From an uncultured Chitinophagaceae bacterium (lineage in GTDB: Bacteria > Bacteroidota > Bacteroidia > Chitinophagales > JADJOU01), in the NCBI GenBank assembly GCA_964465185.1, contig CAYXKX010000003.1:1527-65526 (forward strand): a stretch of 64,000 nt of DNA, given 5' to 3'. The notes under the pieces were generated by a model that made no database searches, was not told where the DNA came from, and was given only the letters and a program-made list of their open reading frames with translations. Position numbers and translations under genes: made by a program. Of this stretch, positions 14,213 through 50,213 are shown piece after piece; position 1 is the stretch's first letter, and each line of letters begins with the position of its first letter.

Positions 14213-14305
14213 TCTATCCCCCTTTTTTCCTTTGATTTTAATGCGCCATTCTTACTGCTGACCCGGTGATAATTTATCTCGAAAGCTCGTGTATTCAATG
14301 TCTAG

Positions 14306-17300: not shown

Positions 17301-17479
17301 TGGTGTTGATTATTAGCTATCAAGGCGGACTCGAAGATGGCATTGGCTTTTTCAAAGGCCGACTTAGGCAGCCTCTTCTGCTGTAAGGCCTCTACTTCCT
17401 GCCATTCTTTGCTGTAATCCTGAGACATAAGCGTACTAGTGAGCCCTGCAAATAGGAGCGCGATCAATGATAATTTCAT
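14306..17479 (-). CDS. Alpha-2-macroglobulin family protein, N-terminal fragment (signal peptide plus MG-type domains) of a disrupted gene
   Basis: Signal peptide MKLSLIALLFAGLTSTLMSQ. Long N-terminal region and repeated beta-rich MG-like segments. It ends at TAG (14306-14308) in frame with the downstream fragment. Confidence 0.8.
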   Translation of the reverse strand: MKLSLIALLFAGLTSTLMSQDYSKEWQEVEALQQKRLPKSAFEKANAIFESALIANNQHQIVKSIFYLQNLSSQLEEIEYDSRSQKEIKFIEKHLEKVSGGAKSILLSFLASKYSQFLDQNYWKIKDRTKNTGSRAEDLALWTMEDLENQTIELYLKSLEDELNKKVKIAQYAKLISNTDSKYCQTLYDFLARRAIEALSNERHYISQPAHAFQPSLDHFSAAPSFIKVLIKPSLFDSKKYTALKLYQSLLAEHINDADPTIFIDLDLQRLAFVYNNLEHENKTEIYKKNLQALFDKYKKHSESYYALLTLAQVLQNEGYTYQSTKDSSDRWRLKESLAVCDQIISQCGDINIVSQAKNHKNNIIQNIQFSPTLEKVYLPNKPILGHLQYTNLDKIHYRIYNKKIDVNNLYDENYDQKERFIKIFKNSLAQQGIFTLTNPGDYYSHTTELDFPSLPVGNYTIVYSKNPDFEFSGNLLHAVSTSVSNLAYFQHREAAHTEMNLYTVDRNNGQPLSEVEVSLYQSYWTNKRQSKLIKTLMSNSAGLVVYPIENYQNNNYFFILKKGSDVLNELQEDHFYRDNNYGMEHISDHYDLFLDREIYRPDQTIYFKGIAYQSSNKANPKLLTNKAVEVIFRDANHQEIAKKSFLTNEYGTFHGDFTAPKGGLLGRMSFTVNNNSTKEVRIEEYTRPSFEVLFDTFRQQVKLGQEVKIHGTGKAYSGANLPNATVKYRVTRATNYPYWRCWWMPMPSEEKQITFGETKTDENGKFNLSFMAEPGKDNPWDTNPIFQYTVKIEMTDITGEMQMGSTAVSVGKVDFQLNADVKPTYGKNDPFYIPLFVQNINGQLIDKKVDIEITKLSDPAVLYQTRYWEKPDLYIISESEFRKKFPYLPYGNEDRIENYKKGSIVYVTTKQATKTAGLEGLAINIETYKGGSYKLTLSALDQDGKELSIDKYFTILDDQELGKDKPLHIQNLKSSYQPGEKTNISLTGSQTGQRIWYSVIRKNQTSSQAWTDGTSAKLILDLKEEDRGGAYVLWTSVWNNRLYSNKEYLNIPFTNK

Positions 17480-17564
17480 AAGCGATGGATTTCATTCAGA
17501 TAATTCTAGACTAAGATAGTGCAGATGGGATTTAGTTTAATGAAAAAATGGTTAAGATGAAGGT

Positions 17565-17669
17565 GAGTTGATGTGGGAATGAGACAATTTGAAAATGCGA
17601 TAATTTGATAATGGGTTGATATGATAATGTGATGATGAGTTGATGGGGGAATGGGACAATTTGAAAATG
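17565..17669. repeat. Two copies of a 33-nt direct repeat (GAGTTGATGkGGGAATGrGACAATTTGAAAATG) 72 nt apart
   Basis: Copies at 17565-17597 and 17637-17669 differ at 2 positions. The sequence between them is low-complexity GAT-rich. Confidence 0.7.
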
Positions 17670-17673
17670 AATG

Positions 17674-17752
17674 CTCTGCGCCATTCAAGGTCTTTCGACC
17701 TTGAATCATTTATCCTATTTAGTTCTATTACCTATTTTTTTTGCTATCCTTG
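17674..17752. repeat. Direct repeat copy A (contains palindromic unit P1, ATTCAAGGTC-tttc-GACCTTGAAT)
   Basis: 79 nt. Matches 32204-32281 with 3 substitutions and 1 indel. The hairpin is at 17683-17706. Confidence 0.9.
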
Positions 17753-17770
17753 ATTGGTTAGGCGTGTTTG

Positions 17771-17787
17771 TTGGTGAATAACACCAA
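17771..17787. repeat. Palindromic unit P3 (TTGGTG-aataa-CACCAA)
   Basis: The same unit with a longer stem occurs at 50214-50236. Confidence 0.7.
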
Positions 17788-17924
17788 AGGGAGAAATGGC
17801 TAAGCTAATGGTGTTTTTTCGTTTAACCGCAAAGGACTCAAGGGTAGCGCAAAGAACACGAAGAATTTTCATGGGAAGTTAAGTTTAGTTGGAATATAGT
17901 AAGAGGTTATGATTTATGTTGGCT

Positions 17925-17942
17925 TCAGGTGGCAACACCTGA
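17925..17942. repeat. Palindromic unit P2-like (TCAGGTGG-ca-ACACCTGA)
   Basis: Related to AGTCAAGGTGG-yaa-CACCTTGACT at 32287-32310 and 50285-50308. Confidence 0.6.
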
Positions 17943-18035
17943 CGAGGCGGAGGATTTCGTATTACAAGAAGATAACCTTCATATCTTTTATTTTCTGATA
18001 TTCTAGCTAAAAATCAATCATAAATTTTCACGAAA

Positions 18036-18512
18036 TTAGCCTATTAAACACTCCTTATCCTTCTTTTCGTCGTAGTCGATGAGGAGATCCACCCCATTCC
18101 AGGTGGCTAGGCTGCTTTCCAGTCGAAAACAATCCCCCTGATTCCAGCTGGAGCCTATATAGTCTTCAATGAGATCCTTTATCCAGACCTTCTCCCCTAT
18201 CTGAATATCTGCTGGTATGAGATAAGCAGCGAAAGGCGATTTGAAGTGATAGGGATAGTAAAACGTCCAGTCTATGACGGTTTCATAATCTTCCAGTTCT
18301 AATCCTGAGCCCATACCAGAGCGATAATCTGTCAATACCTCTATCTGGCCTGTTTTTTTATTTCGCACCACTGCATACTTGGTTTTGATTTTCGGTGAAG
18401 GCTTCACCTGCTTGACCAAGGGTTTAAATCCCTTATGAATAGCCGCATTGATACTTTGCTCGTCTCTGGCGGTTTCTATGACTCTGAGGTCTTCTTGCTT
18501 ATTATTTTTCAT
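18036..18512 (-). CDS. Hypothetical protein (158 aa), second gene of a two-gene module
   Basis: Its start overlaps the stop of the upstream ORF in an ATGA (18509-18512). No family recognised. Confidence 0.6.
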   Translation of the reverse strand: MKNNKQEDLRVIETARDEQSINAAIHKGFKPLVKQVKPSPKIKTKYAVVRNKKTGQIEVLTDYRSGMGSGLELEDYETVIDWTFYYPYHFKSPFAAYLIPADIQIGEKVWIKDLIEDYIGSSWNQGDCFRLESSLATWNGVDLLIDYDEKKDKECLIG

Positions 18513-18778
18513 TCATTTGAGTTAAAGGTGATTTGTAAATTTTCTTGCTTGTAATCTATCTTCAGGCAGGTAGCGGGCTGAGTACGGAGCTGCTGTTTGA
18601 CCTCTTCATCCGTGAGAAAAGCTGTATCGATAATGATTTGCTGACACTGCCTGCATTTTTTATTTTGAGAATTCGTTCTCTCCAGATCTTCCCAGGCCAT
18701 GCGGTAGGGGCAGTGGAGCTTTTTCAGCAGTTCACCAACATCTGTATAAAGTTCATTTTTGATCGGGTTAAATTTCAT
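18509..18778 (-). CDS. Hypothetical small protein with putative zinc ribbon (HCP...CRQC)
   Basis: 89 aa. The pattern C-P-x4-W-x2-L-x10-C-x2-C resembles a small zinc-ribbon module. It is preceded by the shared promoter architecture at 18823-18860. Confidence 0.6.
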   Translation of the reverse strand: MKFNPIKNELYTDVGELLKKLHCPYRMAWEDLERTNSQNKKCRQCQQIIIDTAFLTDEEVKQQLRTQPATCLKIDYKQENLQITFNSNE

Positions 18779-18822
18779 AATTTTTCTCTAAAGTTAAAAA
18801 TAACATAGGCTATCTGGCCGTG

Positions 18823-18910
18823 TAAAGCTAAGAGTGGTGATTGTCAGAAAATGTCGTTTTAAACTTATTTTTTAAACGACAAGTTCTGGCGAGATAACCC
18901 AATATTTTTG
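18823..18910. promoter_or_regulatory. Divergent promoter cassette, copy 1, with central dyad TGTCGTTT-N14-AAACGACA
   Basis: Minus-facing near-consensus -7 box (taaagcta, 18823-18830), TGTCA (18842-18846), TGTCGTTT (18852-18859), AAACGACA (18874-18881), TGGCG (18887-18891), plus-facing TATTTTTG (18903-18910). Confidence 0.5.
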
Positions 18911-18954
18911 TGTGTAATTTTTTATTTTCATATAACCTAATAAGAAGTTTCAAT

Positions 18955-19317
18955 ATGTTGTTTAGTATTATTGAAAAAATCATTCTAACCACTGCACGTA
19001 TAGTATGTATAGCAGGAAGTCTACTTTTAATATTAGTGATAGATATTCTTGTACGCGCTAGAATTTTTACCTTAGACCAAGTTTTTTCTTACTTTAATAT
19101 GACCAACAAGACCGTTGAAACGAATCATGCCGGGACTTATATAATACAAGAAAAGCCTCTTGTATTAGGGAGTCAGAAAGCTACTACAACTAATAAACTA
19201 GAATATACTCCACAAAAACCTAAGCCAATAAAACCACCCACCATCAAATCTCCACCCAAACCCGGCTGGCGAAAACGAGATCTCGGGATCAAGCCGAGGG
19301 AGAATGGGAGGAAGTGA
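18955..19317 (+). CDS. Small membrane protein A with conserved C-terminal peptide PPKPGWRKRDLGIKPRENGRK
   Basis: The track ORF starts at GTG 18910. The ATG at 18955 has the same tcaatATG context as paralog B. One or two hydrophobic segments. The C-terminal 22 codons are shared with ORF 20418..20798. Confidence 0.6.
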   Translation: MLFSIIEKIILTTARIVCIAGSLLLILVIDILVRARIFTLDQVFSYFNMTNKTVETNHAGTYIIQEKPLVLGSQKATTTNKLEYTPQKPKPIKPPTIKSPPKPGWRKRDLGIKPRENGRK

Positions 19318-19343
19318 ATCTACCACTTTTATAGTAAACAGTA

Positions 19344-19351
19344 TAAATTTG
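19344..19351 (+). promoter_or_regulatory. -7 box TAAATTTG upstream of the KilA-N gene
   Basis: Exact TAnnTTTG match 70 nt upstream of the ATG at 19422. Confidence 0.35.
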
Positions 19352-19421
19352 AGGAGTTAAAAATGAGGTATTGGAAAGAGAGGGTTGATACGAATGAATA
19401 TAAAAATCATCTAAACATAAT

Positions 19422-20240
19422 ATGATAAAGAATAAATCAATCATTGTTAAAGATATAGATATAACTATACTCCAAAAAGATAGTTTCGACTATATTTCGC
19501 TTACAGATATGGTAAAAGGTTTTGGCGATGACACTATGATTTACAGCTGGATGCGCAACCGTAATACTATAGAGTTTTTAGGGATTTGGGAAGAAATGAA
19601 TAATCCAGATTTTAAAGGTAACGAATTCGTTACCTTTAAAAGTCAGGCAGGATTAAATAGCTTTAACCTCACGCCTAAGAAGTGGATAGAAGCTACCAAG
19701 GCCATTGGGATTATATCAAAAGCAGGCAGATATGGTGGTGGCACGTTTGCTCATAAAGACTTGGCTTTTGAATTTGGAAGTTGGCTGAGTCCAGAATTTA
19801 AACTCTATCTGATCAAAGAGTTTCAACGACTGAAAGACGACGAAAATAATCGTCTTAACCTCACTTGGAACCTACACAGAACTCTGAGCAAGATAAACTA
19901 TCGCATTCACACGGATGCCATCCGAGAGCATATTATTCCTGGCAGTATCACCAAAGAACAAGCCGCATTGGTTTATGCCCACGAGGCAGATGTACTCAAT
20001 ATGGCCCTATTTGGGAAAACGGCTAAGCAATGGAGAGACGATAACCCTGATGCAGAAGGAAACATAAGAGATCAAGCCAGTATTGAGCAGCTTTTAGTCC
20101 TTGCCAACATAGAAAGTATGAATGCTGAATTTATTAAAATGAATCTAACCCAGAGCGAACGCCTGCTGAAACTAAACCAGATAGCCATCAGCCAACTGAA
20201 AAGTATCCTAGGTAACCAAGAAATTAAGAAACTGAAATAG
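19422..20240 (+). CDS. KilA-N domain-containing protein
   Basis: N-terminal region ISLTDMVKGFGDDTMIYSWMRNRNTIEFLGIWEEMNNPDFK...FAHKDLAFEFGSWLSPEFKLYL is typical of the KilA-N DNA-binding domain of phage/mobile-element proteins. Confidence 0.85.
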   Translation: MIKNKSIIVKDIDITILQKDSFDYISLTDMVKGFGDDTMIYSWMRNRNTIEFLGIWEEMNNPDFKGNEFVTFKSQAGLNSFNLTPKKWIEATKAIGIISKAGRYGGGTFAHKDLAFEFGSWLSPEFKLYLIKEFQRLKDDENNRLNLTWNLHRTLSKINYRIHTDAIREHIIPGSITKEQAALVYAHEADVLNMALFGKTAKQWRDDNPDAEGNIRDQASIEQLLVLANIESMNAEFIKMNLTQSERLLKLNQIAISQLKSILGNQEIKKLK

Positions 20241-20313
20241 CCAAAGACGAAGATGAGTAACATCGCTACTTCATAGAAAGAAGCCGAAGTGCGCTGAATA
20301 TATTTCATTACCG

Positions 20314-20402
20314 CAAAGCTAGTGCAGGGGATTGTCAAAACCTGTCCTTTTATAAATTAAAAATAAAACGACAAGTTCTGGCTATAAGAGCAATTATTTT
20401 TG
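20314..20402. promoter_or_regulatory. Divergent promoter cassette, copy 2
   Basis: CAAAGCTA (20314-20321), TGTCA (20333-20337), TGTCCTTT (20343-20350), AAACGACA (20366-20373), TGGCT (20379-20383), TATTTTTG (20395-20402). Spacings are identical to copy 1. Confidence 0.5.
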
Positions 20403-20417
20403 CAAATAAAAATCAAT

Positions 20418-20798
20418 ATGCGAGACACCCGAACCGATATTATAGTCTTAATTATTATGATTTGCATTATGCTCATCAGCTATCTCTACTATGCGTTTAT
20501 GATTATAGGACTGGTCATGCTCATAGCCAACTGGATATCTCCTCCTAAGAAAGAAGAGTTCATCATGTATGATCCCTTAAAAGACCCTAAGTTTATCAAA
20601 CGCCTAGATAGTATGAATCGACTAAATGAACAACTACAAAGTGGTCAAAAAAGCAAAAATAACAGCGCCACACAAGAGAAAAAAGCTCCTATAGAGAAAG
20701 AAATAAAACCAAATACCCCCAAGGCTCCGCCCAAACCTGGCTGGAGAAAAAGAGATCTCGGGATCAAGCCAAGGGAAAATGAGAGGAAGGTTAAATGA
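20418..20798 (+). CDS. Small membrane protein B with conserved C-terminal peptide PPKPGWRKRDLGIKPRENERKVK
   Basis: The track ORF starts at TTG 20400; the likely ATG is at 20418. Two hydrophobic segments. The C-terminal motif is shared with ORF 18955..19317. Confidence 0.6.
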   Translation: MRDTRTDIIVLIIMICIMLISYLYYAFMIIGLVMLIANWISPPKKEEFIMYDPLKDPKFIKRLDSMNRLNEQLQSGQKSKNNSATQEKKAPIEKEIKPNTPKAPPKPGWRKRDLGIKPRENERKVK

Positions 20799-20826
20799 CT
20801 AAATCAAATTAATTAATTAATTATAC

Positions 20827-20834
20827 TAGTTTTG
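20827..20834 (+). promoter_or_regulatory. -7 box TAGTTTTG upstream of the dcm operon
   Basis: Exact TAnnTTTG match 91 nt upstream of the ATG at 20926. Confidence 0.3.
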
Positions 20835-20925
20835 TGATGCTAAAACAAATCATCATTACTTTAATAAAAAAGATTTTACAATTTTATTCAAGTAATTTTA
20901 AATCAAACATAAGTAAAAAGTATAG

Positions 20926-22179
20926 ATGAATTTCATAGACTTATTTGCGGGAGCAGGAGGACTTTCGGAAGGTTTTATCCAAGCTGGCTTTGAGCCGATT
21001 GCTCACGTTGAAATTGAAATTTCTGCTTGTAATACTCTGAGAACAAGAGCGGCTTACCATTACTTGAAGACTAACAATAACTACCAAGTTTATATTTCCT
21101 ATCTAAAAGGTGAGATAACTCGTGAACAATTGTATTTAAGTGTACCAAAGGAAATCTTGCATTCTGTTATTAATCTGCCGATTGGAGAAGAAAATAATGA
21201 AACTATTCACCGTCAAATAAAGAAAAGCCTAGGAAAAAGAAAGGTTGACTTAATAATTGGGGGACCTCCTTGCCAGGCTTATTCATTGGTAGGAAGATCA
21301 CGGTCGAAAACAAAAATGGAAGGTGACCCAAGAAATTATCTATTTATTCAATATGCAGAATATTTAGAAAAATACAAACCGAAGATGTTTGTATTTGAAA
21401 ATGTACTGGGATTAAAGTCTGCTAAAGGTGGTCACTATCTCGAAGAGATGGAGAAGATTTTTAACAAAAAAGGCTATCAAATAAAACTGCATACGCTTGA
21501 AGCAAGAAACTTTGGAGTATTGCAAAACAGAAAACGAATTATCATTCTTGGTTGGCAAAAAAACAAAAAGATTAGCATACCAAACTTGGAAGAAATTGGA
21601 ATTGAAAACGATTATTTAGTTAAAGATTTATTGGACGATTTGCCTGTAATAAAAGCTGGTGAAGGTGCAGATAGATTTTTAAAATACAAAACTGAAACAA
21701 CGGAATACTTAAAATACCACGCATTACGCAATGGTATTGATATTTTAACCCAACACGTTGCAAGACCGCATAGAGAGCAAGATAAAGAAATTTATAAAAT
21801 TGCTGTCCAGAAATGGGGAAATAAACAAGAACGATTAAATTATAATGATTTACCTGAGCGATTAAAGACTCATCAAAATCGCACTTCATTTTATGACAGA
21901 TTTAAAGTCGTTGCATCAGACTTGCCCTATTCACAAACAGTAGTAGCCCATATTGCCAAAGATGGACATTATTACATTCATCCTGATATTAAACAGAATC
22001 GATCAATCAGTGTGAGAGAAGCTGCGCGTCTTCAATCTTTTCCTGATAATTATTATTTTGAAGGAGAAAAGGAAGGAGCGAATAGGACTGCTGCTTTTAA
22101 ACAAATAGGAAATGCAGTTCCACCGCTTATGGCGGCTGCTTTAGCAAAAACTATAAGCCAACTTTTGAATGGAAAATAA
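20926..22179 (+). CDS. dcm: DNA (cytosine-5)-methyltransferase
   Basis: All canonical C5-MTase motifs are present: I FIDLFAGAGGLSEGF, IV GGPPCQAYS (PPCQ at nt 21265-21276), VI FVFENV, VIII QNRKRIIILG, IX RSISVREAARLQSFPDNYYF, X QIGNAVPP. Confidence 0.95.
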   Translation: MNFIDLFAGAGGLSEGFIQAGFEPIAHVEIEISACNTLRTRAAYHYLKTNNNYQVYISYLKGEITREQLYLSVPKEILHSVINLPIGEENNETIHRQIKKSLGKRKVDLIIGGPPCQAYSLVGRSRSKTKMEGDPRNYLFIQYAEYLEKYKPKMFVFENVLGLKSAKGGHYLEEMEKIFNKKGYQIKLHTLEARNFGVLQNRKRIIILGWQKNKKISIPNLEEIGIENDYLVKDLLDDLPVIKAGEGADRFLKYKTETTEYLKYHALRNGIDILTQHVARPHREQDKEIYKIAVQKWGNKQERLNYNDLPERLKTHQNRTSFYDRFKVVASDLPYSQTVVAHIAKDGHYYIHPDIKQNRSISVREAARLQSFPDNYYFEGEKEGANRTAAFKQIGNAVPPLMAAALAKTISQLLNGK

Positions 22180-23686
22180 AAACATACAGTCCGAGACCGC
22201 AGACCCCAATCCTGAATATCTGATCAAGTCAATTGCAGAACAGGGTTACAGTTTGGAATCTTCGTTAGCGGATTTGATGGACAATTCTGTTTCAGCAAAC
22301 GCTAACAAAATTGAAGTGCTTATTAAGATGGAGCAAGAGCCATTCACTTTGTTTATTGCTGACAATGGTAATGGAATGGATGAGGAAACACTTAAAGCAA
22401 GTATGCAGTTTCCAAGTAATTCACCAGAAAAAGAAAGAAATGTTTCTGACTTAGGAAGATTTGGATTAGGCATGAAGACTGCATCTTTTTCCCAGACAAG
22501 ATCTTTCACAGTTTTATCAAGAAAAAAAGGAACGAAAACTTTTAGTGGGAGAACTTGGGATGTTAACCATCTGAAACATGTTGGCAAGTGGCGATTAATT
22601 GTAAACACACAGGAAGAAATTACCAAACTCATTCAACAGTATCATTCACTCAGCGAAGGTCATTTGAATCGCTTTGAAAATTTTGAGGCAAATACAATTG
22701 TTGTGTGGAATGGTCTTTACAAGTTTGAAAATTATCTTGAAGAAGACAACAGACAATCTGCCTTGAAGAAACAGATTACAGAAGTTACTTCGGACTATTT
22801 ATCGCTGGTGTTTCATAGGTATATGGAACGCAAAGCAAATTCGTTGCAGATAAGAATCAACAACAATCTGATTGCACCTTTCAATCCATTTCCAACAACT
22901 ATAACTGATTTCCGTCCGATAGAATTCAAACAAAAGCATTTCAGCACTGACACTATTAAAATTGAAGGATTCGTGCTCCCATCCAGAAGTATTGATGAAA
23001 GCCAAAGCATTTCCCTTTGGACTACGAAAAATCGAAGTCTGATGGACATGGAAGGAATCTATATTTACAGAGCAGACAGATTAATCCACTTTGGTGGCTG
23101 GAATGGTTTAATCAAGAAAGCACCACGCCTTCAATTGGCGAGACTTCGTGTTGATATTGGTAACAGCGTTGACCATTTGTTGCATCTGAATGTTGCTAAA
23201 TCTCAAATTGAAATACCACACGACTTGAAAGTAGCTTTTGAAAAATATATTGATGAATTAAAATCTCAGGCAGAGAGAGAATTCTTCAACAGAGGCATCA
23301 GGAGATTTTCATCAAATCGTAAAGAAGATAATGTACAACTATTTGAGAGAAAATCAAGCAACAAAGGAACATTGCTAGAAGTGAACAGCAGTTTTCCATT
23401 ACTCAAATCATTGAAGAATGAATTGAAAAAAGAGCAACTCACAAAACTGAATCTGGTCATTAGGATGATAAATACAAGGATTAATGAAATCAGGCAAACT
23501 CATGAGCAGAAAGAATTTGTAGGAATTGAAGAGAAAGACGGATTGTCATTGAAAGATTTAATCACCTGTGTGAACGAACTCATGGAAAGTGGGCTGTCTT
23601 CTGAACTGATAAAAAAAGAGATACTTCCAAATCTAGGATTTACGGAAAGTTCATTGCCACAAGAAGTCATTCAACTATTAAAATAA
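22169..23686 (+). CDS. GHKL (Bergerat-fold) ATPase, HATPase_c_3 / MORC-like
   Basis: N box DLMDNSVSANA, G1 box IADNGNGMD, G2 box GRFGLGMKTASFS. The start overlaps the dcm stop by 11 nt. Confidence 0.85.
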   Translation: MENKNIQSETADPNPEYLIKSIAEQGYSLESSLADLMDNSVSANANKIEVLIKMEQEPFTLFIADNGNGMDEETLKASMQFPSNSPEKERNVSDLGRFGLGMKTASFSQTRSFTVLSRKKGTKTFSGRTWDVNHLKHVGKWRLIVNTQEEITKLIQQYHSLSEGHLNRFENFEANTIVVWNGLYKFENYLEEDNRQSALKKQITEVTSDYLSLVFHRYMERKANSLQIRINNNLIAPFNPFPTTITDFRPIEFKQKHFSTDTIKIEGFVLPSRSIDESQSISLWTTKNRSLMDMEGIYIYRADRLIHFGGWNGLIKKAPRLQLARLRVDIGNSVDHLLHLNVAKSQIEIPHDLKVAFEKYIDELKSQAEREFFNRGIRRFSSNRKEDNVQLFERKSSNKGTLLEVNSSFPLLKSLKNELKKEQLTKLNLVIRMINTRINEIRQTHEQKEFVGIEEKDGLSLKDLITCVNELMESGLSSELIKKEILPNLGFTESSLPQEVIQLLK

Positions 23687-23691
23687 ATTTC

Positions 23692-26600
23692 ATGGAGAAT
23701 AGATATATAGACATCATTATCAAAATCATTGCTAGCAAGGCAAAAGAATATTCACAGAATTATTCCTTGTCTCCAACTTATTTTCTAAATCTTCTTCCAG
23801 AGATTCATGATTCTATCATAGCTATAATCAAAGTGTATGGTTATCCTGAAATTGATGAAGTGACTTTAAAAAATTATTATGAGACTGCAAAGAACCAGTA
23901 TTTGTCTGTTAATCCAATTGACATTGACCCTAGCAATTCACTTACGAAAAAAGGATTTAGAACATGGCTGACAGCAGAAAGAAAAGAGGAATTGAAAAAC
24001 TCTTGGAATTACAGCGACAGATATTTCACCTTACTTGAAAAAGCTGGTCGTTCCGAAAAAGTAATTGACGAAACTAAAAAGACCAGTCTTGAAATTCTTG
24101 AAAAAATGGGAGACCCAAAATCAAGAGAGGAATTTTATGTAAAAGGATTAGTAGTTGGTAGTGTTCAGGCAGGGAAAACCCAAAACTTTAATGCAGTAAT
24201 CAACCGTGCAATAGATTCGGGATACGGATTAATAATTGTCTTGGCTGGTTTAATGGAAGACTTGAGAAATCAAACTCAGTTAAGAATTGAGAATGATGTT
24301 ATAGGAGAAGGACTTGACATTGATACTGATACTTTGGTAAAAAAAGGTGTTGGAGCAATAAGAAGATTTGGAAACATGGGAGATAGCAGTGTTACACAAG
24401 TTATTTCAATTACATCTGCCAAATCTGATTTCAAAAAATCATTGCTTGATGCTGATTTCTCTCTTAATCATACAAATATACTAGTATGTAAAAACAATGT
24501 GAGTGTTTTGCGTAACCTTATTGTTTGGTTGCATGATTACCTTGAAGAAAACAAAGATCAACATGATATTCCTTTGCTTATTCTAGATGATGAGGCGGAC
24601 AACGCATCATTAAACAATGAAGGAAAAAGAGGAAGGGAATATGCTTCAAAAACAAATGGACATATCAGGGCTTTACTTGCATTGTTCAAACGGAAAACTT
24701 ATCTCGGTTATACTGCAACACCATTTGCAAATATTCTTGCCGACCGCAATGATGCACCAGAAAATAACTGGATTGTAAAATATAAAGTGAGAGGACAGGC
24801 TGAAGAAAAAGCTCTTCAACGTGTTGATAATTTATTTCCTGATGATTTTATCGTGCTGCTTAATCCGCCAACAAATTATGTTGGAGCAAAGCAAATATTT
24901 GAAACAACCAAACCAATAGATAACAAAGCCGAATTAAAAATTCCTTTAGTGGAACTTGTAGATGATAACATCGAACATTTTCCAGATAAGGTTTATTCAC
25001 CAAGTAATGGAGAATTATTAGGTGTCTTGAAAATCAAAAGTCAAAATGACTGGAATGAAAAAATTGGACAATTTAATTCTTATCTTGACTTTGCAGACTA
25101 TAGTGAATATAGAAGACAAACAAGGTCTTCCAGAACAGGTGATGGCTTCCCAAGAAGATTGCCTGATTCAATAAAAGAAAGTATTCTCTGTTTTATTCTT
25201 ACAATTGCAATTCGTGAAAGCAGGAAACCTGCTATGGTAAATTCTACAATGTTCAATCCACATAATTCAATGTTGATTCACATTTCGAGATACACTCTTT
25301 GGCAAAATACTCTCAAAGATTTAATTGATGTGTATATAAGAGACTTGCAAAGTAGCTTACAGCTTGACGACCCAAGTAATCCCAGTTCTATCTTCGCAAC
25401 TTTTGAAAGAATCTGGTTCAAATACTACTCGATAATTATTGAACATGTTTCTGACTATTTGCCGAAAGGATATGACGATGAGTTTCTGAAACCTATCAGT
25501 TTTGAAACAATAAAAAATAATTTTCTCACTGATGCAATTAAAGGAATTGAAGTTAAGGCTGTAAATAGTTCTACTGGCGACAAACTTGTTTATCCGAGGA
25601 ACACACCAAAGAAATATATTGCCATTGGTGGAAATAGATTATCCCGTGGATTTACACTTGAAGGATTAAGTATAAACTATTTTGTTCGTTCAACCGATTA
25701 TTCTGATGCTTTACTCCAAATGGGAAGATGGTTTGGTTACAGACCAGGCTATCTGGATTGTTGTAAACTTTTCATCACACGGGATTCAATGGAGAAATAT
25801 GATTTGGTTACAAGAACCATTGAAGAATTGGAAAGTGAGTTTAGGATAATGGAAGAGAAAAACAGGACACCTGCCAATTTTATTCTTCGGGTAAAGAAAC
25901 ATCCAGGAGCTCTTAAAATAACAAGACCAGCAATTCTTAGGGATACATTAGAAGTCAATTGGTCTTATCAGGATACGCTTGAGCAGTCTACAAACTTTGA
26001 TATTCGAAGGCAAAAAATTGAAGCGGTCTGGCAACAATTCAAGAACAACATTGTAGGTAAGCATAAATTTGAAATTAAAAAGAAAGAAAATGGAAGTGAT
26101 ACAGGTTTTCTTACAGCACAAACAGATATTGCTGGTGTATTGGAAATTCTAAAACAAGAAAACAATTTTACAAATGAAACTTGCGACAGCATAATAAAAT
26201 TCATTGAGCGATGTAAAGAAGTAAATAAGCTAACAAAATGGACGATAGCAATTAAGACTACTGGTAGAGCAAAAGAAAATGAAGGTAAGGGGAAATTGAG
26301 AAAGGAAGAATCCAATTTGGATATTGATATAACAATGACAGTTAGAAGAGGTCCTTCCACTGAAGATGGAGTAAAATATTTTAGAGAAAAATTTATTCAC
26401 GGGAAAATTTTCGGTGCATCTGGAAAATCTGCGAATCTAATTTCAGCCGGACTTGACATGTCAATACTTTTGACTGAAACTCAAATCAAAGCTGCCGAGA
26501 AAGAATTTATTGATAACAGAAGAAAATACTATAAGGAAAAATATCCTGAATGGTCAGAGAAGCAAGTCAATAAAAAAGCAGAAGAAGTAAACATACCTGA

Positions 26601-26898
26601 AAGAGTCTACCGTGAGAAAATGACAGACCAAGAAGGACTACTTGTAATCTACATTTTAGATTCTTACTATGTTTTCCTTCAAGAGAATGGCAAAGATGAT
26701 TCTCAATTGAAGGCGATTGTAGAAAGCGAAGGGATTGACTTAAATACTCCATTGATTGGGTATGCCATTGGATTTCCACCGATAGAACCTGATCCAGGTG
26801 GTGTTTATGTTCATGGAAATTATGGATTTGAAGAGGAAGAAGAAATTGAATTTAACGAAGTGGATTCTGAATTGCCAGATGATGCTAACGAAATATAA
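23692..26898 (+). CDS. Z1 domain-containing P-loop NTPase (SF2 helicase-like)
   Basis: Walker A GSVQAGKT (nt 24157-24180), DEAD-like ILDDEADNAS (nt 24580-24609), YTATPFAN, and the Z1 signature GGNRLSRGFTLEGL...LQMGRWFGYRPGY. Acidic C-terminal tail. Confidence 0.85.
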   Translation: MENRYIDIIIKIIASKAKEYSQNYSLSPTYFLNLLPEIHDSIIAIIKVYGYPEIDEVTLKNYYETAKNQYLSVNPIDIDPSNSLTKKGFRTWLTAERKEELKNSWNYSDRYFTLLEKAGRSEKVIDETKKTSLEILEKMGDPKSREEFYVKGLVVGSVQAGKTQNFNAVINRAIDSGYGLIIVLAGLMEDLRNQTQLRIENDVIGEGLDIDTDTLVKKGVGAIRRFGNMGDSSVTQVISITSAKSDFKKSLLDADFSLNHTNILVCKNNVSVLRNLIVWLHDYLEENKDQHDIPLLILDDEADNASLNNEGKRGREYASKTNGHIRALLALFKRKTYLGYTATPFANILADRNDAPENNWIVKYKVRGQAEEKALQRVDNLFPDDFIVLLNPPTNYVGAKQIFETTKPIDNKAELKIPLVELVDDNIEHFPDKVYSPSNGELLGVLKIKSQNDWNEKIGQFNSYLDFADYSEYRRQTRSSRTGDGFPRRLPDSIKESILCFILTIAIRESRKPAMVNSTMFNPHNSMLIHISRYTLWQNTLKDLIDVYIRDLQSSLQLDDPSNPSSIFATFERIWFKYYSIIIEHVSDYLPKGYDDEFLKPISFETIKNNFLTDAIKGIEVKAVNSSTGDKLVYPRNTPKKYIAIGGNRLSRGFTLEGLSINYFVRSTDYSDALLQMGRWFGYRPGYLDCCKLFITRDSMEKYDLVTRTIEELESEFRIMEEKNRTPANFILRVKKHPGALKITRPAILRDTLEVNWSYQDTLEQSTNFDIRRQKIEAVWQQFKNNIVGKHKFEIKKKENGSDTGFLTAQTDIAGVLEILKQENNFTNETCDSIIKFIERCKEVNKLTKWTIAIKTTGRAKENEGKGKLRKEESNLDIDITMTVRRGPSTEDGVKYFREKFIHGKIFGASGKSANLISAGLDMSILLTETQIKAAEKEFIDNRRKYYKEKYPEWSEKQVNKKAEEVNIPERVYREKMTDQEGLLVIYILDSYYVFLQENGKDDSQLKAIVESEGIDLNTPLIGYAIGFPPIEPDPGGVYVHGNYGFEEEEEIEFNEVDSELPDDANEI

Positions 26899-26900
26899 TT

Positions 26901-27869
26901 ATGACAAGTATTGAATTAAAACAAAAGTGGTCAGGGCTTTCTGAGAATCCTACTACAATTGGCTTTCGGTCACTAAGAATTTCCGCTGACTGTATCTGTG
27001 AACTTTACCTAGCAGTTAGCAAGGAAGGAAAAAGATGTTTGATACTTTCACTTCCTTCGAATAAGCATTTAGATTTCAAAGGAATTCAAAAAGAAAATTT
27101 ATCCATCGAATACTTCAGAGAAAAAAATCTAATCGTCCTTCAATTAAATGACAGTGATTTCAACGACCTTTTTGACGACCTAATTCTTTCCCTTTATAAT
27201 GGAATAAAAAGCATCCGTCAGGTAGATGAGTATTCAAATCATTTCATTGAGGCCTTTTACAGATGGAGTGAATTTTTTGAAGACAAGAAATCAGATATAC
27301 TGTCTGAGGAAGCAATAAAAGGCATCATGGGAGAATTGTTGGTTCTGAAATTATTAATCACAGCTCCAGACAAACCCGAAATTAATTTCCTTTTAAAAGC
27401 ATGGACTGGACTTTATGATAAAGGCAACGACTTTGAATTGGAGAGTAAAAATATAGAAGTAAAAGCCAAATCCTCCTCAGGCATTGATGTTAAAATATCA
27501 AGTGAATTTCAGTTAGAAGTATCCCCAGGAAAAGGACTTGAACTATTTGTAGTTTCATTATCAAGCGACTTCACTGTTGGAATTCATATTGGAAATTTGA
27601 TATTAGAAATCAAGAAATTGGTTCAAGAATCTTCAGGTGACAATACAATTTTGTGGAAGGCACTGAGCCAAAAGAATATTACTGCGAAAAATGTTAGCCA
27701 TTATGATAGATACAGATTCAAGCCTGTCAATTGGGTATCTTACAACTGTGCAGACGAAAATTTTCCAAAACTTAGCAGGTCAAATATTCCAGAAGAAATA
27801 AGTAGCTTGAAATATATGCTGAGAACAAACTTGCTTACATCTTTTATCATTGAACAAAACGATTTTTAA
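26901..27869 (+). CDS. PD-(D/E)XK motif protein (putative nuclease)
   Basis: GELLVL ... GNDFEL ... NIEVKAK gives the E / D / ExK arrangement of PD-(D/E)XK nucleases. It starts 2 nt after the Z1 gene stop. Confidence 0.7.
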   Translation: MTSIELKQKWSGLSENPTTIGFRSLRISADCICELYLAVSKEGKRCLILSLPSNKHLDFKGIQKENLSIEYFREKNLIVLQLNDSDFNDLFDDLILSLYNGIKSIRQVDEYSNHFIEAFYRWSEFFEDKKSDILSEEAIKGIMGELLVLKLLITAPDKPEINFLLKAWTGLYDKGNDFELESKNIEVKAKSSSGIDVKISSEFQLEVSPGKGLELFVVSLSSDFTVGIHIGNLILEIKKLVQESSGDNTILWKALSQKNITAKNVSHYDRYRFKPVNWVSYNCADENFPKLSRSNIPEEISSLKYMLRTNLLTSFIIEQNDF

Positions 27870-27871
27870 AA

Positions 27872-30481
27872 ATGAAAATTGAAGAATTCCTAAATTATAG
27901 AAAAGAATTACTCGACAGTTCAAAAGACGAAGAGGGATTTGTTCAGCAAACACAATTGTTGAGTCAGATTCTTCCTTTAATGGTTGATGCTAAATTGCTC
28001 GATTCAGAAGACTGGAATGATTCATATTTCTTGAATACTGCTGAGAACTTAAAGTTGAATGGTTATACAGTTAACGAATCATCAGAAAGATTGCAGTTAT
28101 TCATTGTTGATGAATCAAGTATTGACCTTACTTCATCTGATAAAGATTTACAAATCTCGACTAAAAGCCATTATGACAATCAGTTTAAGAGAGTCACAAA
28201 GTTTTTGAATAAAGCAATTAAGGGATTTTTGAATGATGATGTTCAGGATGCAGATCCAATCAGACCATTGTTATCTCAACTTTCATCCGCAAGAGGTGCA
28301 GAGCAGTTTGATGTAATAGAAATATTTTTAGTTAGCACTACTGCCACAACTGAAACTCGTGGCTCAATTCCACAGCCAAAGAGGATAGAGTTTGAGGATG
28401 AGAACATTTCAGTGGGTTTTACCAGAAACAGAGTAAGAATAAATAAAGAATTACTCATCATTAAGAAACTAGTTGACTTAAACTTTTTGTATGATGTTTT
28501 GATTTCTCAAGGTAACAGAGAAGCTCTTGTAATTGATTTCGAAAAATTGTTTGACTACAAAATTGAAGTAATTAAAGCAGCAGAAGAAGAAAACTTTGAA
28601 TCTTATCTATGTGTTCTACCAGCAAACATTCTTTCTGACCTTTACAAAAGATACAGTTCAAGATTACTTGAAAAAAATGTGCGGTCATTTCTACAGTTTA
28701 AGGGAGCAAACAAAGGAATAAGAGAAACGATAAGAGTAAGCCCCGAAAAATTTATTGCTTTCAATAACGGAATTACAATAACATCATCAGCAAAAGAAAT
28801 TGAATCCAAAAATGGCAAAATGTTTATCAAATCCTTAACGGATTTTCAAATTGTAAATGGCGGCCAAACAACTGCAAGTATCTACTTCACTCAAAAGGAT
28901 GGATTTTCAATTGACAAGGTCAAGATAATGGCCAAGATTAATGTTGCACGCGATGTAACAGAGGAAGGGTTAGATTCTTTGATTTCTGATATAAGTAGAT
29001 ATTCAAATTCTCAGACCAAGGTTTCAAATGTTGACTTAAGTTCAAGAAGTCCGCAACTGAATAAAATCAAAGCACTTTCCGAAAGCATTATTACGCCTTC
29101 TGGAAGAAAATGGTTCTTTGAAAAATCAAGAGGCGAGTTTAATACCAAGCTAAGAATTGCAGGCTCAAACAAAGCAAGAATTGAAAAAGAATATCCAAAG
29201 AATTATCGTTTCTCCAAGGAGCAATTAGGCAAGTATTTTACTGCCTGGGGAGACCAACCATATGTTGTAAAAAAGGGTGGTGAAAAAGTATTCAGATATT
29301 TTTTGGAAGAAATAACAGGCGAGTTACGGGGCAAGAAAGTAGTCAATGTAAACCGTGATTTTTACGAAGATTTAATTTCTAAAATCATTCTGTTTACCCA
29401 ACTAGAAAAAATTTATGGCCAAGGGAAACATTCAATGGGGCAAATAAGGTCAGCAGTTGTGCCTTATGCTATTTCAATAATCTACATTTATACTGATGGT
29501 GCAAAAGATGGAAAGCAATTTGATCTATCCAAGATTTGGAAGAAAGAGAAACTTGAAGATGACCTAGTAACATTTTTTACAGAGTTAATGGAACTAATGA
29601 ATGGCTTAATTAAAAATTATTCGGAAAGCGATGACTATGGTGAGTATGCGAAGAACAAAAAGTTGTGGGAAAACATATCGGTTTCTAAAGAAATTCTGAA
29701 ATTCATGACTTCAAAAATTTCTCAGCAGATACTTGGCAAATATTCCATAGCTGTTAAAGAGAAAAAAAATGGAGAGAGAGCAGAAGTTGATTTTGAAAAA
29801 ATACAATTAAACATTGATGTTCTTTCTAAAGGGATGGAGTTTTACAATCAACTCAGTAACCAATATGATAGGCTTTCAAAGTTACAAGAGAAGAAAATGG
29901 ACATAATTATCTCTTCAATTATAAAGTTGGAAGATTTAAGCGGAGAACTTTTAAGATTTGAGAGTAATCTTATGAACGAGATACGAAAAAATAATCCTGA
30001 GATTTTTGACAAAATAACTGCTCCATACAATCATCAGATTGAAAGCACCTTGAAGCTTATCATTTTGAAATATAATCAAGCAGTTGATAAAGGAATTGGA
30101 ATAATTGATTTTTTCAAGACTATTATGCAGAAACCTTCTGAGGACATAAACAATTTAACATCAGTGTTTGACAAGATTGCACTTCAACTTTCAAAAGGGG
30201 TTGCCCCTTCAGTTAAAGACATTCACTTAGCATCAAAATATTTTAACAAGGAATTAGACTCTACGAAAGCAGAAATTCCCAAAAATTCAGACCAAGAAAT
30301 AAATTTAAATGTATTAAAACAGATGGTGGATTGGGATTCCAGAATGAAAATTTTGTCTACAGGAGAAAGGGCATACATAGCTGATTTAGCTTATGAACTC
30401 AAGCCGCTTAATGAATTTCATAAAACAAATGCGGAAAAACATTTGAAAACATTATTGAAAGTTGGATTAAAATTGAGTTGA
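27872..30481 (+). CDS. AIPR (abortive infection phage resistance) family protein
   Basis: Central region FNNGITITS...FQIVNGGQTTASIY matches the conserved AIPR core. 869 aa. It starts 2 nt after the PD-(D/E)XK gene stop. Confidence 0.8.
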   Translation: MKIEEFLNYRKELLDSSKDEEGFVQQTQLLSQILPLMVDAKLLDSEDWNDSYFLNTAENLKLNGYTVNESSERLQLFIVDESSIDLTSSDKDLQISTKSHYDNQFKRVTKFLNKAIKGFLNDDVQDADPIRPLLSQLSSARGAEQFDVIEIFLVSTTATTETRGSIPQPKRIEFEDENISVGFTRNRVRINKELLIIKKLVDLNFLYDVLISQGNREALVIDFEKLFDYKIEVIKAAEEENFESYLCVLPANILSDLYKRYSSRLLEKNVRSFLQFKGANKGIRETIRVSPEKFIAFNNGITITSSAKEIESKNGKMFIKSLTDFQIVNGGQTTASIYFTQKDGFSIDKVKIMAKINVARDVTEEGLDSLISDISRYSNSQTKVSNVDLSSRSPQLNKIKALSESIITPSGRKWFFEKSRGEFNTKLRIAGSNKARIEKEYPKNYRFSKEQLGKYFTAWGDQPYVVKKGGEKVFRYFLEEITGELRGKKVVNVNRDFYEDLISKIILFTQLEKIYGQGKHSMGQIRSAVVPYAISIIYIYTDGAKDGKQFDLSKIWKKEKLEDDLVTFFTELMELMNGLIKNYSESDDYGEYAKNKKLWENISVSKEILKFMTSKISQQILGKYSIAVKEKKNGERAEVDFEKIQLNIDVLSKGMEFYNQLSNQYDRLSKLQEKKMDIIISSIIKLEDLSGELLRFESNLMNEIRKNNPEIFDKITAPYNHQIESTLKLIILKYNQAVDKGIGIIDFFKTIMQKPSEDINNLTSVFDKIALQLSKGVAPSVKDIHLASKYFNKELDSTKAEIPKNSDQEINLNVLKQMVDWDSRMKILSTGERAYIADLAYELKPLNEFHKTNAEKHLKTLLKVGLKLS

Positions 30482-30485
30482 ATTG

Positions 30486-30511
30486 AAAAAACCCTCCGCA
30501 CTTGCGCAGAG
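30486..30511 (-). terminator. Candidate rho-independent terminator (minus strand)
   Basis: On the minus strand: CTCTGC-gcaagt-GCGGAG (6-bp stem including one G-U pair) followed by GGTTTTTT. It abuts the AIPR stop codon. Confidence 0.35.
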
Positions 30512-30754
30512 TTAAGCAAAGCGGTCCCTGTGCCATCCATAACCCCTCCTGCTCCCCATCTGACCTATGTCTATAGCCATTTATTGATCGATTAGTACTA
30601 AGCGACGTAGCATGAATTTGTATGAATAATTGCTTGAAGTTTTTTATATTTGTAACGGACCAGATTCTGGGTCTTAAGTTCCTTTTGCCAGAAAGTAGAA
30701 TATTTTAGACTTTGCTTATTATTACATTTAAAGGTTTAAAATGATTTGAATCGC

Positions 30755-32116
30755 TTACTCTTCCATCACTTCCTTCCATAGAAAATCATAGAGTTTCAGC
30801 ACACCCAGCGTGTCCTGTCGGCAGTAGATGAGCATATTCTCGAGGACTTTTTCACGAAGCAGTTCGTCTGTGATAGAGGCTAGCTCGGCATATTGCTGGC
30901 TGGTCTCCATGCCATGGGATATTTCCAGATCGTCATAGTTCATTCCCTCCACATAGGCGGGGAGCACTGTCTTGAGCGAAGCACTGTGCGCGGTCTTATT
31001 CGTTCGATAATGGTTTCTGAATATGGGCAGGAGGTCTACTAGTTGCTCCTGGATTCTGGTCAGATCGTCCGTATAATGCGGAAAGTCTAGTATGAGTCCA
31101 TTGATGCAGGCTCTCTCAAAATTCACATTATAGCACAGCGCATGGTGTCCATGCTGGAAATCCGCTATCATCTGCTGAATCAGCGCTTCTCGGGGGTCGT
31201 TCAGCCCATCGCCTATGAAATCGTAGTAGATAGGCTCGCTCTCTGCGGATGCTTTGTAGATAAGCGAATACTGGAAAGGAATCTGCTGATAAGGACTGGA
31301 TCTATCATAGAGGGGTACTCCGGGCATGACCGTCTCGAAATCGAAGGAATAGAGTGGATACTGAACCTTATGGAGAAACTCTGCTATCTTCTCTTTTTCA
31401 TAGGTAATCAATTCATCCGGATTCCAATCACTGGCGATCTCCTCCTCTATTTCATCGAGAATCAGACCAGTGCAGTAGTTCATAAACTCACATCCATAAG
31501 GCTTGGAGCACTGCGGACCCATTTCTACTTCTGGTTCTTCCCCTTTGAGCACTTGGATGAGCTCTGGTATTCGGTTCGCGATTTCCTGCTGATAGTCCTC
31601 CATCTGATCTAGAACAGTATCACTCGTAAATAGTTTATGTACATCCAAGTCACCCTGCCGCTTATAATCCCGGTTGAAATGCATGACACGCACATCAGCA
31701 ATAGGATAGCCTAGATGTTTCAGAACATAATACTGAATAGCGACATCCTCTATATGCTCCGCTTTGGTGCTATTCGTGCTTTTCACTTCATAAATAATAT
31801 ATCCAGCAGGTGTTTTGTGGAGAATATCGATAGCTACGAGTACTTGATTATGAATAAATGTGGCTTCGTAAATAGTCTCCACGCCCTCTGCAATCAGCTC
31901 TAGCGTTCGCTCGGCTGTTTTAGCTGTGGGATAGTCATCTTCCAGTGCGAGTATACCGCCGGGGAAATAAGACTGCGCCAAGGTGCCTACATCGGTGCCC
32001 GCCTGAAATATGGCTTGCTGCGCTTCTGAAATTTCGGCTTCTTCGCGCTTGTAGCGGCTTAACCAGAGCGCTTTAACGCATTTTTTTCCTTTGAGAATTC
32101 TAGATTTTGATAACAT
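30755..32116 (-). CDS. DUF2779-type protein: Cas4-like PD-(D/E)XK nuclease fused to DnaQ-like exonuclease fold
   Basis: N-terminal half has D...YEVKS plus Cys at position 13 and a CSKPYGCEFMNYC cluster (4-Cys, Cas4/AddB-like). C-terminal half has FDFET (ExoI-like DxE) and CRQDT motifs. Confidence 0.8.
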   Translation of the reverse strand: MLSKSRILKGKKCVKALWLSRYKREEAEISEAQQAIFQAGTDVGTLAQSYFPGGILALEDDYPTAKTAERTLELIAEGVETIYEATFIHNQVLVAIDILHKTPAGYIIYEVKSTNSTKAEHIEDVAIQYYVLKHLGYPIADVRVMHFNRDYKRQGDLDVHKLFTSDTVLDQMEDYQQEIANRIPELIQVLKGEEPEVEMGPQCSKPYGCEFMNYCTGLILDEIEEEIASDWNPDELITYEKEKIAEFLHKVQYPLYSFDFETVMPGVPLYDRSSPYQQIPFQYSLIYKASAESEPIYYDFIGDGLNDPREALIQQMIADFQHGHHALCYNVNFERACINGLILDFPHYTDDLTRIQEQLVDLLPIFRNHYRTNKTAHSASLKTVLPAYVEGMNYDDLEISHGMETSQQYAELASITDELLREKVLENMLIYCRQDTLGVLKLYDFLWKEVMEE

Positions 32117-32134
32117 ATTCGCTTTTTTGTTTCA

Positions 32135-32171
32135 CAAAATTAGAGCTAAACTAGGACAAAACATGTCGTTG
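32135..32171 (-). promoter_or_regulatory. Promoter of the DUF2779 gene with shared extended architecture
   Basis: Read on the minus strand: AACGACA-tgttt-TGTCC-N11-TAATTTTG, ending 18 nt before the ATG (32116). Confidence 0.45.
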
Positions 32172-32203
32172 ATAAAATTTAGTTTGTATGATAGATAATA
32201 TCA

Positions 32204-32281
32204 CTCTCGCCATTCAAGGTCTTTCGACCTTGTATTATTTATCCTGTTTAGTTCTATTACCTATTTTTTTTGCTATCCTTG
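32204..32281. repeat. Direct repeat copy B (contains palindromic unit P1)
   Basis: 78 nt, 75/79 match to 17674-17752. Confidence 0.9.
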
Positions 32282-32286
32282 TTTTT

Positions 32287-32310
32287 AGTCAAGGTGGTAA
32301 CACCTTGACT
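32287..32310. repeat. Palindromic unit P2 (AGTCAAGGTGG-taa-CACCTTGACT)
   Basis: Near-identical copy at 50285-50308. Confidence 0.8.
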
Positions 32311-32493
32311 GGCTAGGAGTTCATTATTACTTTCTGAAATCATGAGCTAGTATCTTGTAAATCTAGTTTAGAAACATATAGAATAATATTTACATTTGTT
32401 TCTATTAAAACTTCAATAAGTCATTAGTTTCTCTAAACTTAAGAAGCATCATTAGTCGGTAAAATTTCTATTTTTAACCTTAAACAACTTAGT

Positions 32494-33111: not shown

Positions 33112-33144
33112 TAGGACAATCGCAGACTAAACTAGTCTTTATTC

Positions 33145-35697: not shown

Positions 35698-35840
35698 TTT
35701 GGGAAATTTTTTGATTTTCAGATCGACATCAAAGTTACTCAATTTGTAATTTTATACAATACCCATCTTTGGTAAAGTTTCAAAATAAATTTATTAATAT
35801 ATTGATATACATGTGTTTGAAATTTTATAAAACTAAAAAT

Positions 35841-35860
35841 GTTGACAAATATTTATCAAC
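35841..35860. promoter_or_regulatory. 20-bp near-perfect palindrome GTTGACAAATATTTATCAAC upstream of nrdJ
   Basis: 9 of 10 positions are self-complementary. It lies about 145 nt upstream of the preferred nrdJ ATG. Confidence 0.3.
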
Positions 35861-50138: not shown

Positions 50139-50154
50139 TTGGGTTGTTTTGGAG

Positions 50155-50191: not shown

Positions 50192-50213
50192 GAGATTTTA
50201 TTTTTATACTTGA

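Follow-up and report, generated by a model that had tools for sequence, protein, structure and literature searches.

Here, we analyse a 64,000-nt stretch of DNA (the window) from an uncultured Chitinophagaceae bacterium and find within it a variable slot of 18.7 kb (17549–36211), which runs from the promoter of an alpha-2-macroglobulin (A2M) gene to the 3' end of an ABM-domain gene and holds a mosaic island of accessory and defence genes. Inside the slot, two direct repeats (17674–17752 and 32204–32281) bracket a segment that a sequence-only reading had interpreted as a 14.6-kb unit bounded by attL/attR or left behind as a recombination scar. With a probability that we put at roughly 60%, the locus is instead a defence hotspot flanked by core genes and filled module by module, and the repeats are sister copies of a dispersed element rather than the attL and attR of one 14.6-kb mobile element. 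The comparisons below demonstrate the element family, the borders of the slot, the differing cargo in relatives and the presence or absence of single modules. The modules that we propose are a small two-gene pair; a KilA-N gene with a duplicated small-protein gene; a Dcm-GHKL-Z1-DUF4420-AIPR cassette; a DUF2779 gene; a phage-type GH19 gene; and an additional NrdJ gene. Recombination in the conserved flanks, or illegitimate insertion, would bring these modules in and take them out with no resident recombinase involved, and the two element copies may have arisen by copying of the element or may have come along with a module.

The window lies on contig C3 of a genome (G000) that is 84% complete and comprises 80 contigs and 2.56 Mb. 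Our comparison of the slot rests on three genomes (G000, G003 and G005) and two metagenome variants (X3 and X4), which share the same flanking genes and differ in cargo; the relatives (G003, G005 and others) are other species, or strains known solely as metagenome contigs. Close orthologues of the A2M gene are found in two congeners, at 84% amino acid identity in G003, the closest genome, and 69% in G005. On the left, the conserved A2M promoter and leader (17480–17548, − strand) matches G003 and G005 at 87–90% identity, and homology ends at 17548. Because conservation among all three genomes on the A2M side ends with 17480–17548, we define the slot as 17549–36211. Its right border is the ABM-domain gene (36212–36499, − strand; Pfam ABM), which is syntenic in G003 and G005.

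In G005 the slot is empty: this genome is collinear with the window from 53200 down to 36209, continues for ~195 bp, and then resumes at window position 17527 and runs downwards. No copy of the element occurs in this ~195-bp intergenic sequence, which we read directly, and neither of the two G005 sites detected by our model of the element falls there; the sequence-only reading had proposed looking in relatives for an empty site with a single repeat. It had also treated the repeats as the borders of the acquired DNA, with the GH19 and nrdJ genes as chromosomal genes outside the right repeat. The region absent from G005 is 17549–36211, which includes both genes, and we class GH19 and nrdJ as accessory and place them inside the slot. 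Measured against G005 and G003, the repeats sit 125 nt and 3.9 kb inside the slot borders at 17548/17549 and 36211/36212, respectively.

G003 carries other cargo between the same flanks. On the ABM side it has an element copy, a DUF1353 open reading frame (ORF) and an HsdR gene, together with a second copy of 48 nt from the ABM 3' end; on the A2M side it has Hen1, a RhuM/Fic protein and Pnkp. The duplicated stretch is the 3'-terminal 48 nt of ABM, at 3153–3200 and 3970–4017 of G003:C98 (L003), and the ~770 nt between the two contain the element, another hairpin and the DUF1353 ORF. This arrangement looks like an insertion into the 3' end of the gene; G000 has no ABM 3'-end duplicate of this kind.

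The direct repeat itself is real and in the same orientation at both positions, as the sequence-only reading had it, and it extends beyond the ends then noted. A repeat search of the window aligned 77 nt without gaps at 95%, and whole-genome BLAST returned 74 nt at 95.9% (E 6e-29), far beyond chance for 2.56 Mb. The left copy carries a 29-nt deletion between two CCTTG words; past this gap, 17748–17765 still aligns with 32303–32320. The first 32 nt of the 79-mer form a perfect hairpin (CAAGGTC-TTTC-GACCTTG, plus flanks) that recurs at 50241–50272 of the window and at G000:C5:36405. At both of these sites it is followed by a second hairpin, GTCAAGGTGG-loop-CACCTTGAC, and the same second hairpin occurs at 32289–32310, after the right copy. 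The 42-nt tail of the 79-mer is confined to two sites in the genome (2/2 matches), and an exact scan with the repeat's 34-nt tail gave no match in metagenome contigs and none in genome contigs, collections that may omit the records of the window's own genome. We take the two 79-mers to be sister copies of one small element, non-coding and ~115 nt long.

To describe this element we aligned eight copies from G000, G003, G004 and G007, built a covariance model on the alignment and ran it on 13 genomes of the genus. The layout is a hairpin A (GCCATTCAAGGTC-loop-GACCTTGAAT), an AT-rich spacer and a hairpin C (GTCAAGGTGG-loop-CACCTTGAC-nGGC). The ends are inverted, the 5' GCCATTCAAGGTC corresponding to GCCAGTCAAGGTG, the reverse complement of the 3' end. 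Across the eight copies the hairpins are conserved, and the spacers, 45–50 nt long (12 nt in one copy), are unrelated between loci. The RNAalifold consensus adds a closing GCC/GGC stem to the two hairpins, with compensatory change in 5 of 24 pairs. At the slot, the right copy (32204–32322, + strand) is full length and gives the best covariance-model match, at 111 bits; the left copy (17674–17768, + strand) retains hairpin A and the spacer, has lost hairpin C to the 29-nt deletion, and scores 72 bits. Their spacer is common to this pair alone: 86 of 98 positions agree, with a spacer z of 13, against z values of at most 3.9 for the other non-orthologous pairs in G000.

The element is present in 5 of the 13 genus genomes, with eight sites in G000, nine in G003, four in G007, three in G004 and two in G005 (model matches after merging of both strands). 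Many sites match the model on both strands, as expected because the element has inverted symmetry. Elsewhere the element occupies ordinary intergenic DNA: downstream of a GNAT gene, 20 nt past a RecQ gene, upstream of a UPF0227 gene, and in the gap separating purE from an AddA-like gene. At some of these sites it is missing from related genomes. Comparing filled with shorter sites (G003:C113, with two copies, against G000:C1; the purE-addA region of G000 against G004, G007 and G005) revealed no clear duplication of flanking bases. An Rfam scan of 17000–37000 at E up to 1 placed no family on the element and returned a single chance snoRNA-like match. The sequence-only reading had proposed searching the genome for further copies, and the outcome is divided: the hairpin part is dispersed over eight sites, and the spacer tail occurs at two.

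The third locus of the family in the window (50204–50315, + strand) lies between purE and the AddA-like helicase gene and consists of a hairpin B, hairpin A, a 12-nt spacer and hairpin C; it did not align to the corresponding intergenic regions of G004, G007 and G005, which are shorter. Four palindromes, B, A, C and GCAGAGTCTCTCGAAGAGGACTCTGC, are clustered in this intergenic region (50139–50416), and other DNA interrupts the spot in G003. Hairpin B (TTGTTGGTGAATAACACCAA) is a separate dispersed palindrome with 11 genome sites at up to three substitutions, one of them next to the left copy at 17767–17790. Elsewhere, positions 6085–7016 of L027 (G003:C53) form a clean 932-nt presence/absence difference with G000:C8:31244–31247, made up of a degenerate element copy and one SDR-type dehydrogenase gene.

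We also compared assembled contigs from public runs (Logan) with the window over 16900–36800; these carry no raw reads, rare variants are dropped from them and circles are not visible in them. One variant structure came from X4, a relative at ~40x depth whose A2M differs by ~10%. Its 33-kb contig contains A2M, 31 letters in place of 17561–17674, and the left element with an identical hairpin-C deletion. The contig then carries 717 nt in place of 17953–18039 and the two small genes up to 18873, and joins 20366. The 18873/20366 junction leaves a single small-protein copy and no KilA-N. A 14-kb contig of the same run, which we infer to belong to the same strain, joins 20557 to 36218, and depth is near zero over the Mza genes of the cassette, DUF2779 and nrdJ. 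In X3 the Mza genes are ~99% identical, 33115 is joined to 36218 through 18 other letters, and depth is zero over 33500–36155; nrdJ is apparently missing in this strain; the shorter side of the 33115/36218 joint has just 21 letters. The repeats coincide with none of these breakpoints (18873/20366, 20557/36218 and 33115/36218). Contigs of run X1 show no differences from the window, which may derive from that run, and for run X2 the uncovered parts of the stretch were not counted as evidence. When metagenome contigs were searched with the A2M N-terminus, none of the 76 pattern matches was confirmed as a relative.

Two further joints were rejected. One, from 17711 to 32287 in X1 and X4, resembles the deletion predicted for the repeat pair, and we identify it as the third locus (50213–50315) mapped onto the repeats, because its 12 middle letters equal 50273–50284, its shorter side is only 28 letters long, and a companion joint from 17787 to 17680 with CAATTAA matches 50228–50240. 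The other, from 18013 to 32971 in X1, has a depth of 41 and a shorter side of 23, compared with a depth of ~6 for the organism, and we take it to be another organism or a repeat.

The sequence-only reading had seen no integrase, recombinase, transposase or tRNA gene, and our searches agree. There is no tRNA across the whole window. Six-frame searches of the genome with Phage_integrase (PF00589, three genome hits), Resolvase (PF00239, no hits) and Y1_Tnp (PF01797, four hits) placed nothing on contig C3, and Pfam analysis of 11 ORFs of the segment found no integrase or recombinase. The three tyrosine recombinases of the genome, XerD, an XerC-like protein and an unassigned one (on C26), are all encoded away from this contig. 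Three complete Y1 genes score 69–75 bits against the IS200/IS605 cut-off of 55, and 26–33 bits against the REP_Tyr_transpos cut-off of 80. At one locus, G000:C37:6400–7200 (L034), an IS200/IS605-type Y1 gene has several GCCCAGGGTTTAAACCCTGGG-type palindromes on both sides, an arrangement like that of REP-associated transposases, with a protein that falls below that family's cut-off.

Several observations weigh against the hotspot interpretation. The sharing of a spacer by this pair alone, together with the same orientation, a distance of 14.5 kb, the bracketing of cargo and a total of eight sites in 2.56 Mb, is not what random scatter predicts, and module-by-module filling leaves the pair's shared spacer, spacing and orientation unexplained. 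It equally leaves unexplained why the element stands at the edges of other gene-content differences: in G003:C53, the element and the SDR gene face an empty site in G000:C8, and in G000:C5 a full and a partial element copy enclose a 163-aa ORF, where G003 carries different DNA. No transposase is tied to the element; we found no link between it and the Y1 transposases, whose flanks hold other hairpins or none, and inspection by eye revealed no convincing target-site duplication at the outer flanks of the copies. Finally, the genomes compared include no strict same-strain empty site, the relatives being other species or metagenome contigs.

Among the alternatives, the one that survives best is a recombination scar, which we regard as unlikely but worth retaining. 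A circular or linear DNA with one element copy would have inserted itself into a resident copy, through homologous (Campbell-type) recombination or a site-specific recombinase acting in trans, leaving the cargo between two direct copies, and the element would serve as a landing site for hotspot cassettes. Such an event would account for two copies in the same orientation with a 95% identical spacer that no other pair in the genome resembles, and for a homology between them that stops at the element's own ends. Also in its favor, the element borders further differences in gene content (G003:C53, G000:C5 and beside ABM in G003). It fits poorly, however, with X4: there the left copy, bearing the same hairpin-C deletion, is accompanied by the left cargo, and the right copy, the Mza genes and DUF2779 are all missing. 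The slot borders and every observed breakpoint lie away from the repeat positions, the G005 empty site has no element copy, and no integron-type or other integrase is tied to the element.

The attL/attR assignment of the sequence-only reading fails on these same grounds: where the borders lie, what the empty site holds, the lack of a recombinase, and a strain in which left copy and left cargo are both present and the right copy is absent. The locus resembles the attL/attR of integrative islands and prophages in that same-orientation direct repeats bracket accessory DNA. It differs from them in that there is no integrase, the target is neither a tRNA nor a gene 3' end, the repeats are off the borders, and no single-copy empty site was found. 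The broader claim of mobile or scarred DNA thus divides, as the accessory and defence DNA does appear horizontally acquired, whereas the repeats are not its ends. Because the hairpin is a dispersed repeat and the spacer is not, the scar is weakened and still survives.

A different route by which the element could recruit genes is also conceivable, although we consider it improbable. In this case the element would be a recombination site, attC-like or resembling the hairpins of IS200/IS605, at which an enzyme supplied in trans adds genes or cassettes to hotspots of the genus, and the 14.5 kb would represent a single capture. Three loci point the same way: the SDR gene with its element in G003:C53, the 163-aa ORF in G000:C5, and the element beside the 48-nt ABM duplication in G003.

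We likewise give little credence to a purely functional role, in which the hairpin pair would act as a terminator, insulator or small structured RNA upstream of A2M and DUF2779, its likeness kept by selection or gene conversion. By score, hairpin A is terminator-like on the + strand at both copies, several copies lie just beyond gene ends (RecQ, ABM in G003, GNAT), and the stems are conserved with 5 of 24 pairs covarying while the loops vary. Yet no + strand gene ends near either copy in the window, and the right copy lies between divergent gene starts. Orientation relative to neighboring genes is inconsistent, with the model fitting both strands; moreover, the element has no Rfam match at E up to 1, and related genomes do without it at the same intergenic sites.

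Least probable by far is a composite transposon whose ends are the element copies, a unit flanked by miniature inverted-repeat transposable elements (MITEs) and moved in trans by a transposase such as the genome's IS200/IS605-type Y1 enzymes: the inverted ends, the two subterminal hairpins and the four Y1_Tnp hits (three complete and over the IS200/IS605 cut-off) would suit it, but hairpin C is missing from the left copy, the outer ends lack flanking-base duplication by eye, the unit occurs nowhere else in 401 genomes of the order (among the matches listed) or in two exact-word scans, and where a Y1 gene does have clear hairpins on its flanks (C37 alone), the palindrome is a different one, GCCCAGGGTTTAAACCCTGGG.

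Returning to the hotspot, the cargo itself is modular in content and composition. The accessory character that the sequence-only reading assigned to the segment is borne out, with KilA-N, the dcm cassette and DUF2779 supported by Pfam and PADLOC. The DNA matches listed from the 401 genomes of the order each lie on one module, most often nrdJ, KilA-N or dcm, and none of them spans the unit. The GC content of 17753–32203 is 0.360 against 0.365 for the genome (35th percentile), so that the GC check suggested earlier does not flag the segment as a whole. Single modules do differ from the genome value, at 0.341 for the Mza cassette, 0.462 for DUF2779, 0.434 for GH19 and 0.433 for nrdJ, and the tetranucleotide distance of 17753–32203 is at the 97th percentile of 223 windows.

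The cargo is rich in defence genes, comprising an MzaB-E-like cassette, Dcm and PDC-S22 in G000, and HsdR, Hen1/Pnkp and Fic in G003. The largest module is a five-gene cassette (20926–30481, + strand) encoding a Dcm methylase, a GHKL ATPase, a Z1 NTPase, a DUF4420 nuclease and AIPR, identified by Pfam and PADLOC; it matches the PADLOC models of MzaB-E with E values from 4e-13 to 6e-88, beside the cytosine methylase. The KilA-N protein (19422–20240, + strand; Pfam 9.6e-22) is a PADLOC candidate for PDC-S22 (4.4e-130). On the other side of the cassette, a DUF2779/Cas4-like PD-(D/E)XK nuclease (30755–32116, − strand), detected by Pfam and PADLOC, had no match in a phage collection.

At the left end of the slot lie short degenerate tandem repeats (17553–17669) with periods of 16 and 24, including a 45-nt pair 72 nt apart. 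Two overlapping small genes (18036–18778, − strand) encode products of 158 and 89 aa without a known family in Pfam or PADLOC. The sequence-only reading had called these a Zn-ribbon module; the translated 89-aa product is Cys-rich and does contain Cys pairs, but neither ORF belongs to a known family. A copy of this module with 87% nucleotide identity occurs elsewhere in G003 (C57). Two small paralogous proteins with hydrophobic N-termini follow, the first at 18910–19317 (+ strand), seen from internal repeats D3 and D6 and its translation, and the second at 20400–20798 (+ strand), seen from the repeat search and its translation. They are part of a 1.49-kb internal duplication (18857–19317 and 20349–20798) in which the paralogous genes and their upstream regions flank the KilA-N gene.

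Beyond the right repeat, the GH19 lysin module (32358–33131, + strand; gene 32494–33111) is present in 1 of 12 congeners, and its protein is 59% identical to a Cellulophaga phage endolysin. A second GH19 module in the same genome, G000:C40:15338–16113 (L004), is 776 nt long, shares 89.7% nucleotide and 95% amino acid identity, and stands alone between MbnP/MauG-type and glycosyltransferase genes. The neighboring nrdJ (33145–35742, − strand; NrdJ_Z, 571 bits) encodes a B12-dependent enzyme that is an extra ribonucleotide reductase, as G000 also keeps the genus-wide one on C6. The slot nrdJ has a match in 0 of 12 congeners at E 1e-50, and the interval 33138–35875 (nrdJ plus ~130 nt upstream) shares 73–76% nucleotide identity with genes of genus g6, from another family of the order, among the matches listed. 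This similarity suggests transfer within the order. Just outside the slot, the A2M gene (11417–17479, − strand) has two in-frame stops 18 codons apart, TAG at 14308–14306 and TAA at 14254–14252. The position of the first stop is GAG in G003, and the frames of G003 and G005 are single, open and ~2026 aa long; the double stop is either a pseudogene or an assembly error.

In excerpts from the account of the core defence hotspots (cDHS1/2) of Pseudomonas aeruginosa (PMC10250203), those loci share with ours constant core flanks, variable size, and variable cargo that includes defence genes and does not obviously belong to one group of mobile elements. The same excerpts propose transfer via the conserved flanks by transduction and homologous recombination, without mobile-element scars. 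In contrast to those hotspots, as far as the excerpts describe them, the flanks here are A2M and ABM in a small-genome genus whose Por_Secre_tail and CarboxypepD_reg/Plug (TonB-receptor) proteins point to the Bacteroidota, no gene for a non-coding RNA flanks the locus, and the comparison covers three genomes and two variants, not hundreds. Likeness to mzaABCDE-like Dcm/Z1/AIPR cassettes concerns the cargo genes (MzaB-E), not the repeat; within the excerpted source, mzaA is called a sigma factor, and methylase-linked relatives are described as a separate, untested system (PMC9523054).

The architecture of the element resembles that of a MITE or a REPIN. With MITEs it shares a length of ~115 nt, a non-coding sequence, inverted ends and the presence of several copies (2–9 sites per genome in 5 of 13 genus genomes). 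REPINs are described, in the extracts consulted, as doublets of repetitive extragenic palindromic (REP) sequences moved by REP-associated tyrosine transposases (RAYTs) (PMC3337134, PMC3116915), and the element compares with them, to the extent that these extracts characterize them, in being non-coding, intergenic and dispersed, with two palindromes inverted around a spacer and a model that fits both strands. It differs from REPINs as portrayed there in having only 2–9 sites per genome, and its genome's Y1 genes score as IS200/IS605, below the RAYT cut-off, and are not flanked by the element's palindromes. REP sequences carry a GTAG or CGTC tag at one end, according to a partial text (PMC3733652), and neither is found by eye beside the hairpins in the eight aligned copies. 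We therefore do not assign the element to the REPINs, because the complete Y1 genes score below the REP-transposase cut-off and their flanks carry other hairpins or none.

The locus thus serves as a caution that accessory genes enclosed by a clean direct-repeat pair are not necessarily a mobile element. Comparison with relatives shifts the borders of the island by kilobases and moves into it two genes taken for chromosomal, those of a phage lysin and an additional ribonucleotide reductase, providing an example of a compact, recombinase-free defence hotspot in an environmental Bacteroidota lineage. The analysis also reveals a low-copy family of two-hairpin elements that often adjoin differences in gene content; if this association were proved causal, it would suggest a route of cassette capture not described for the group.

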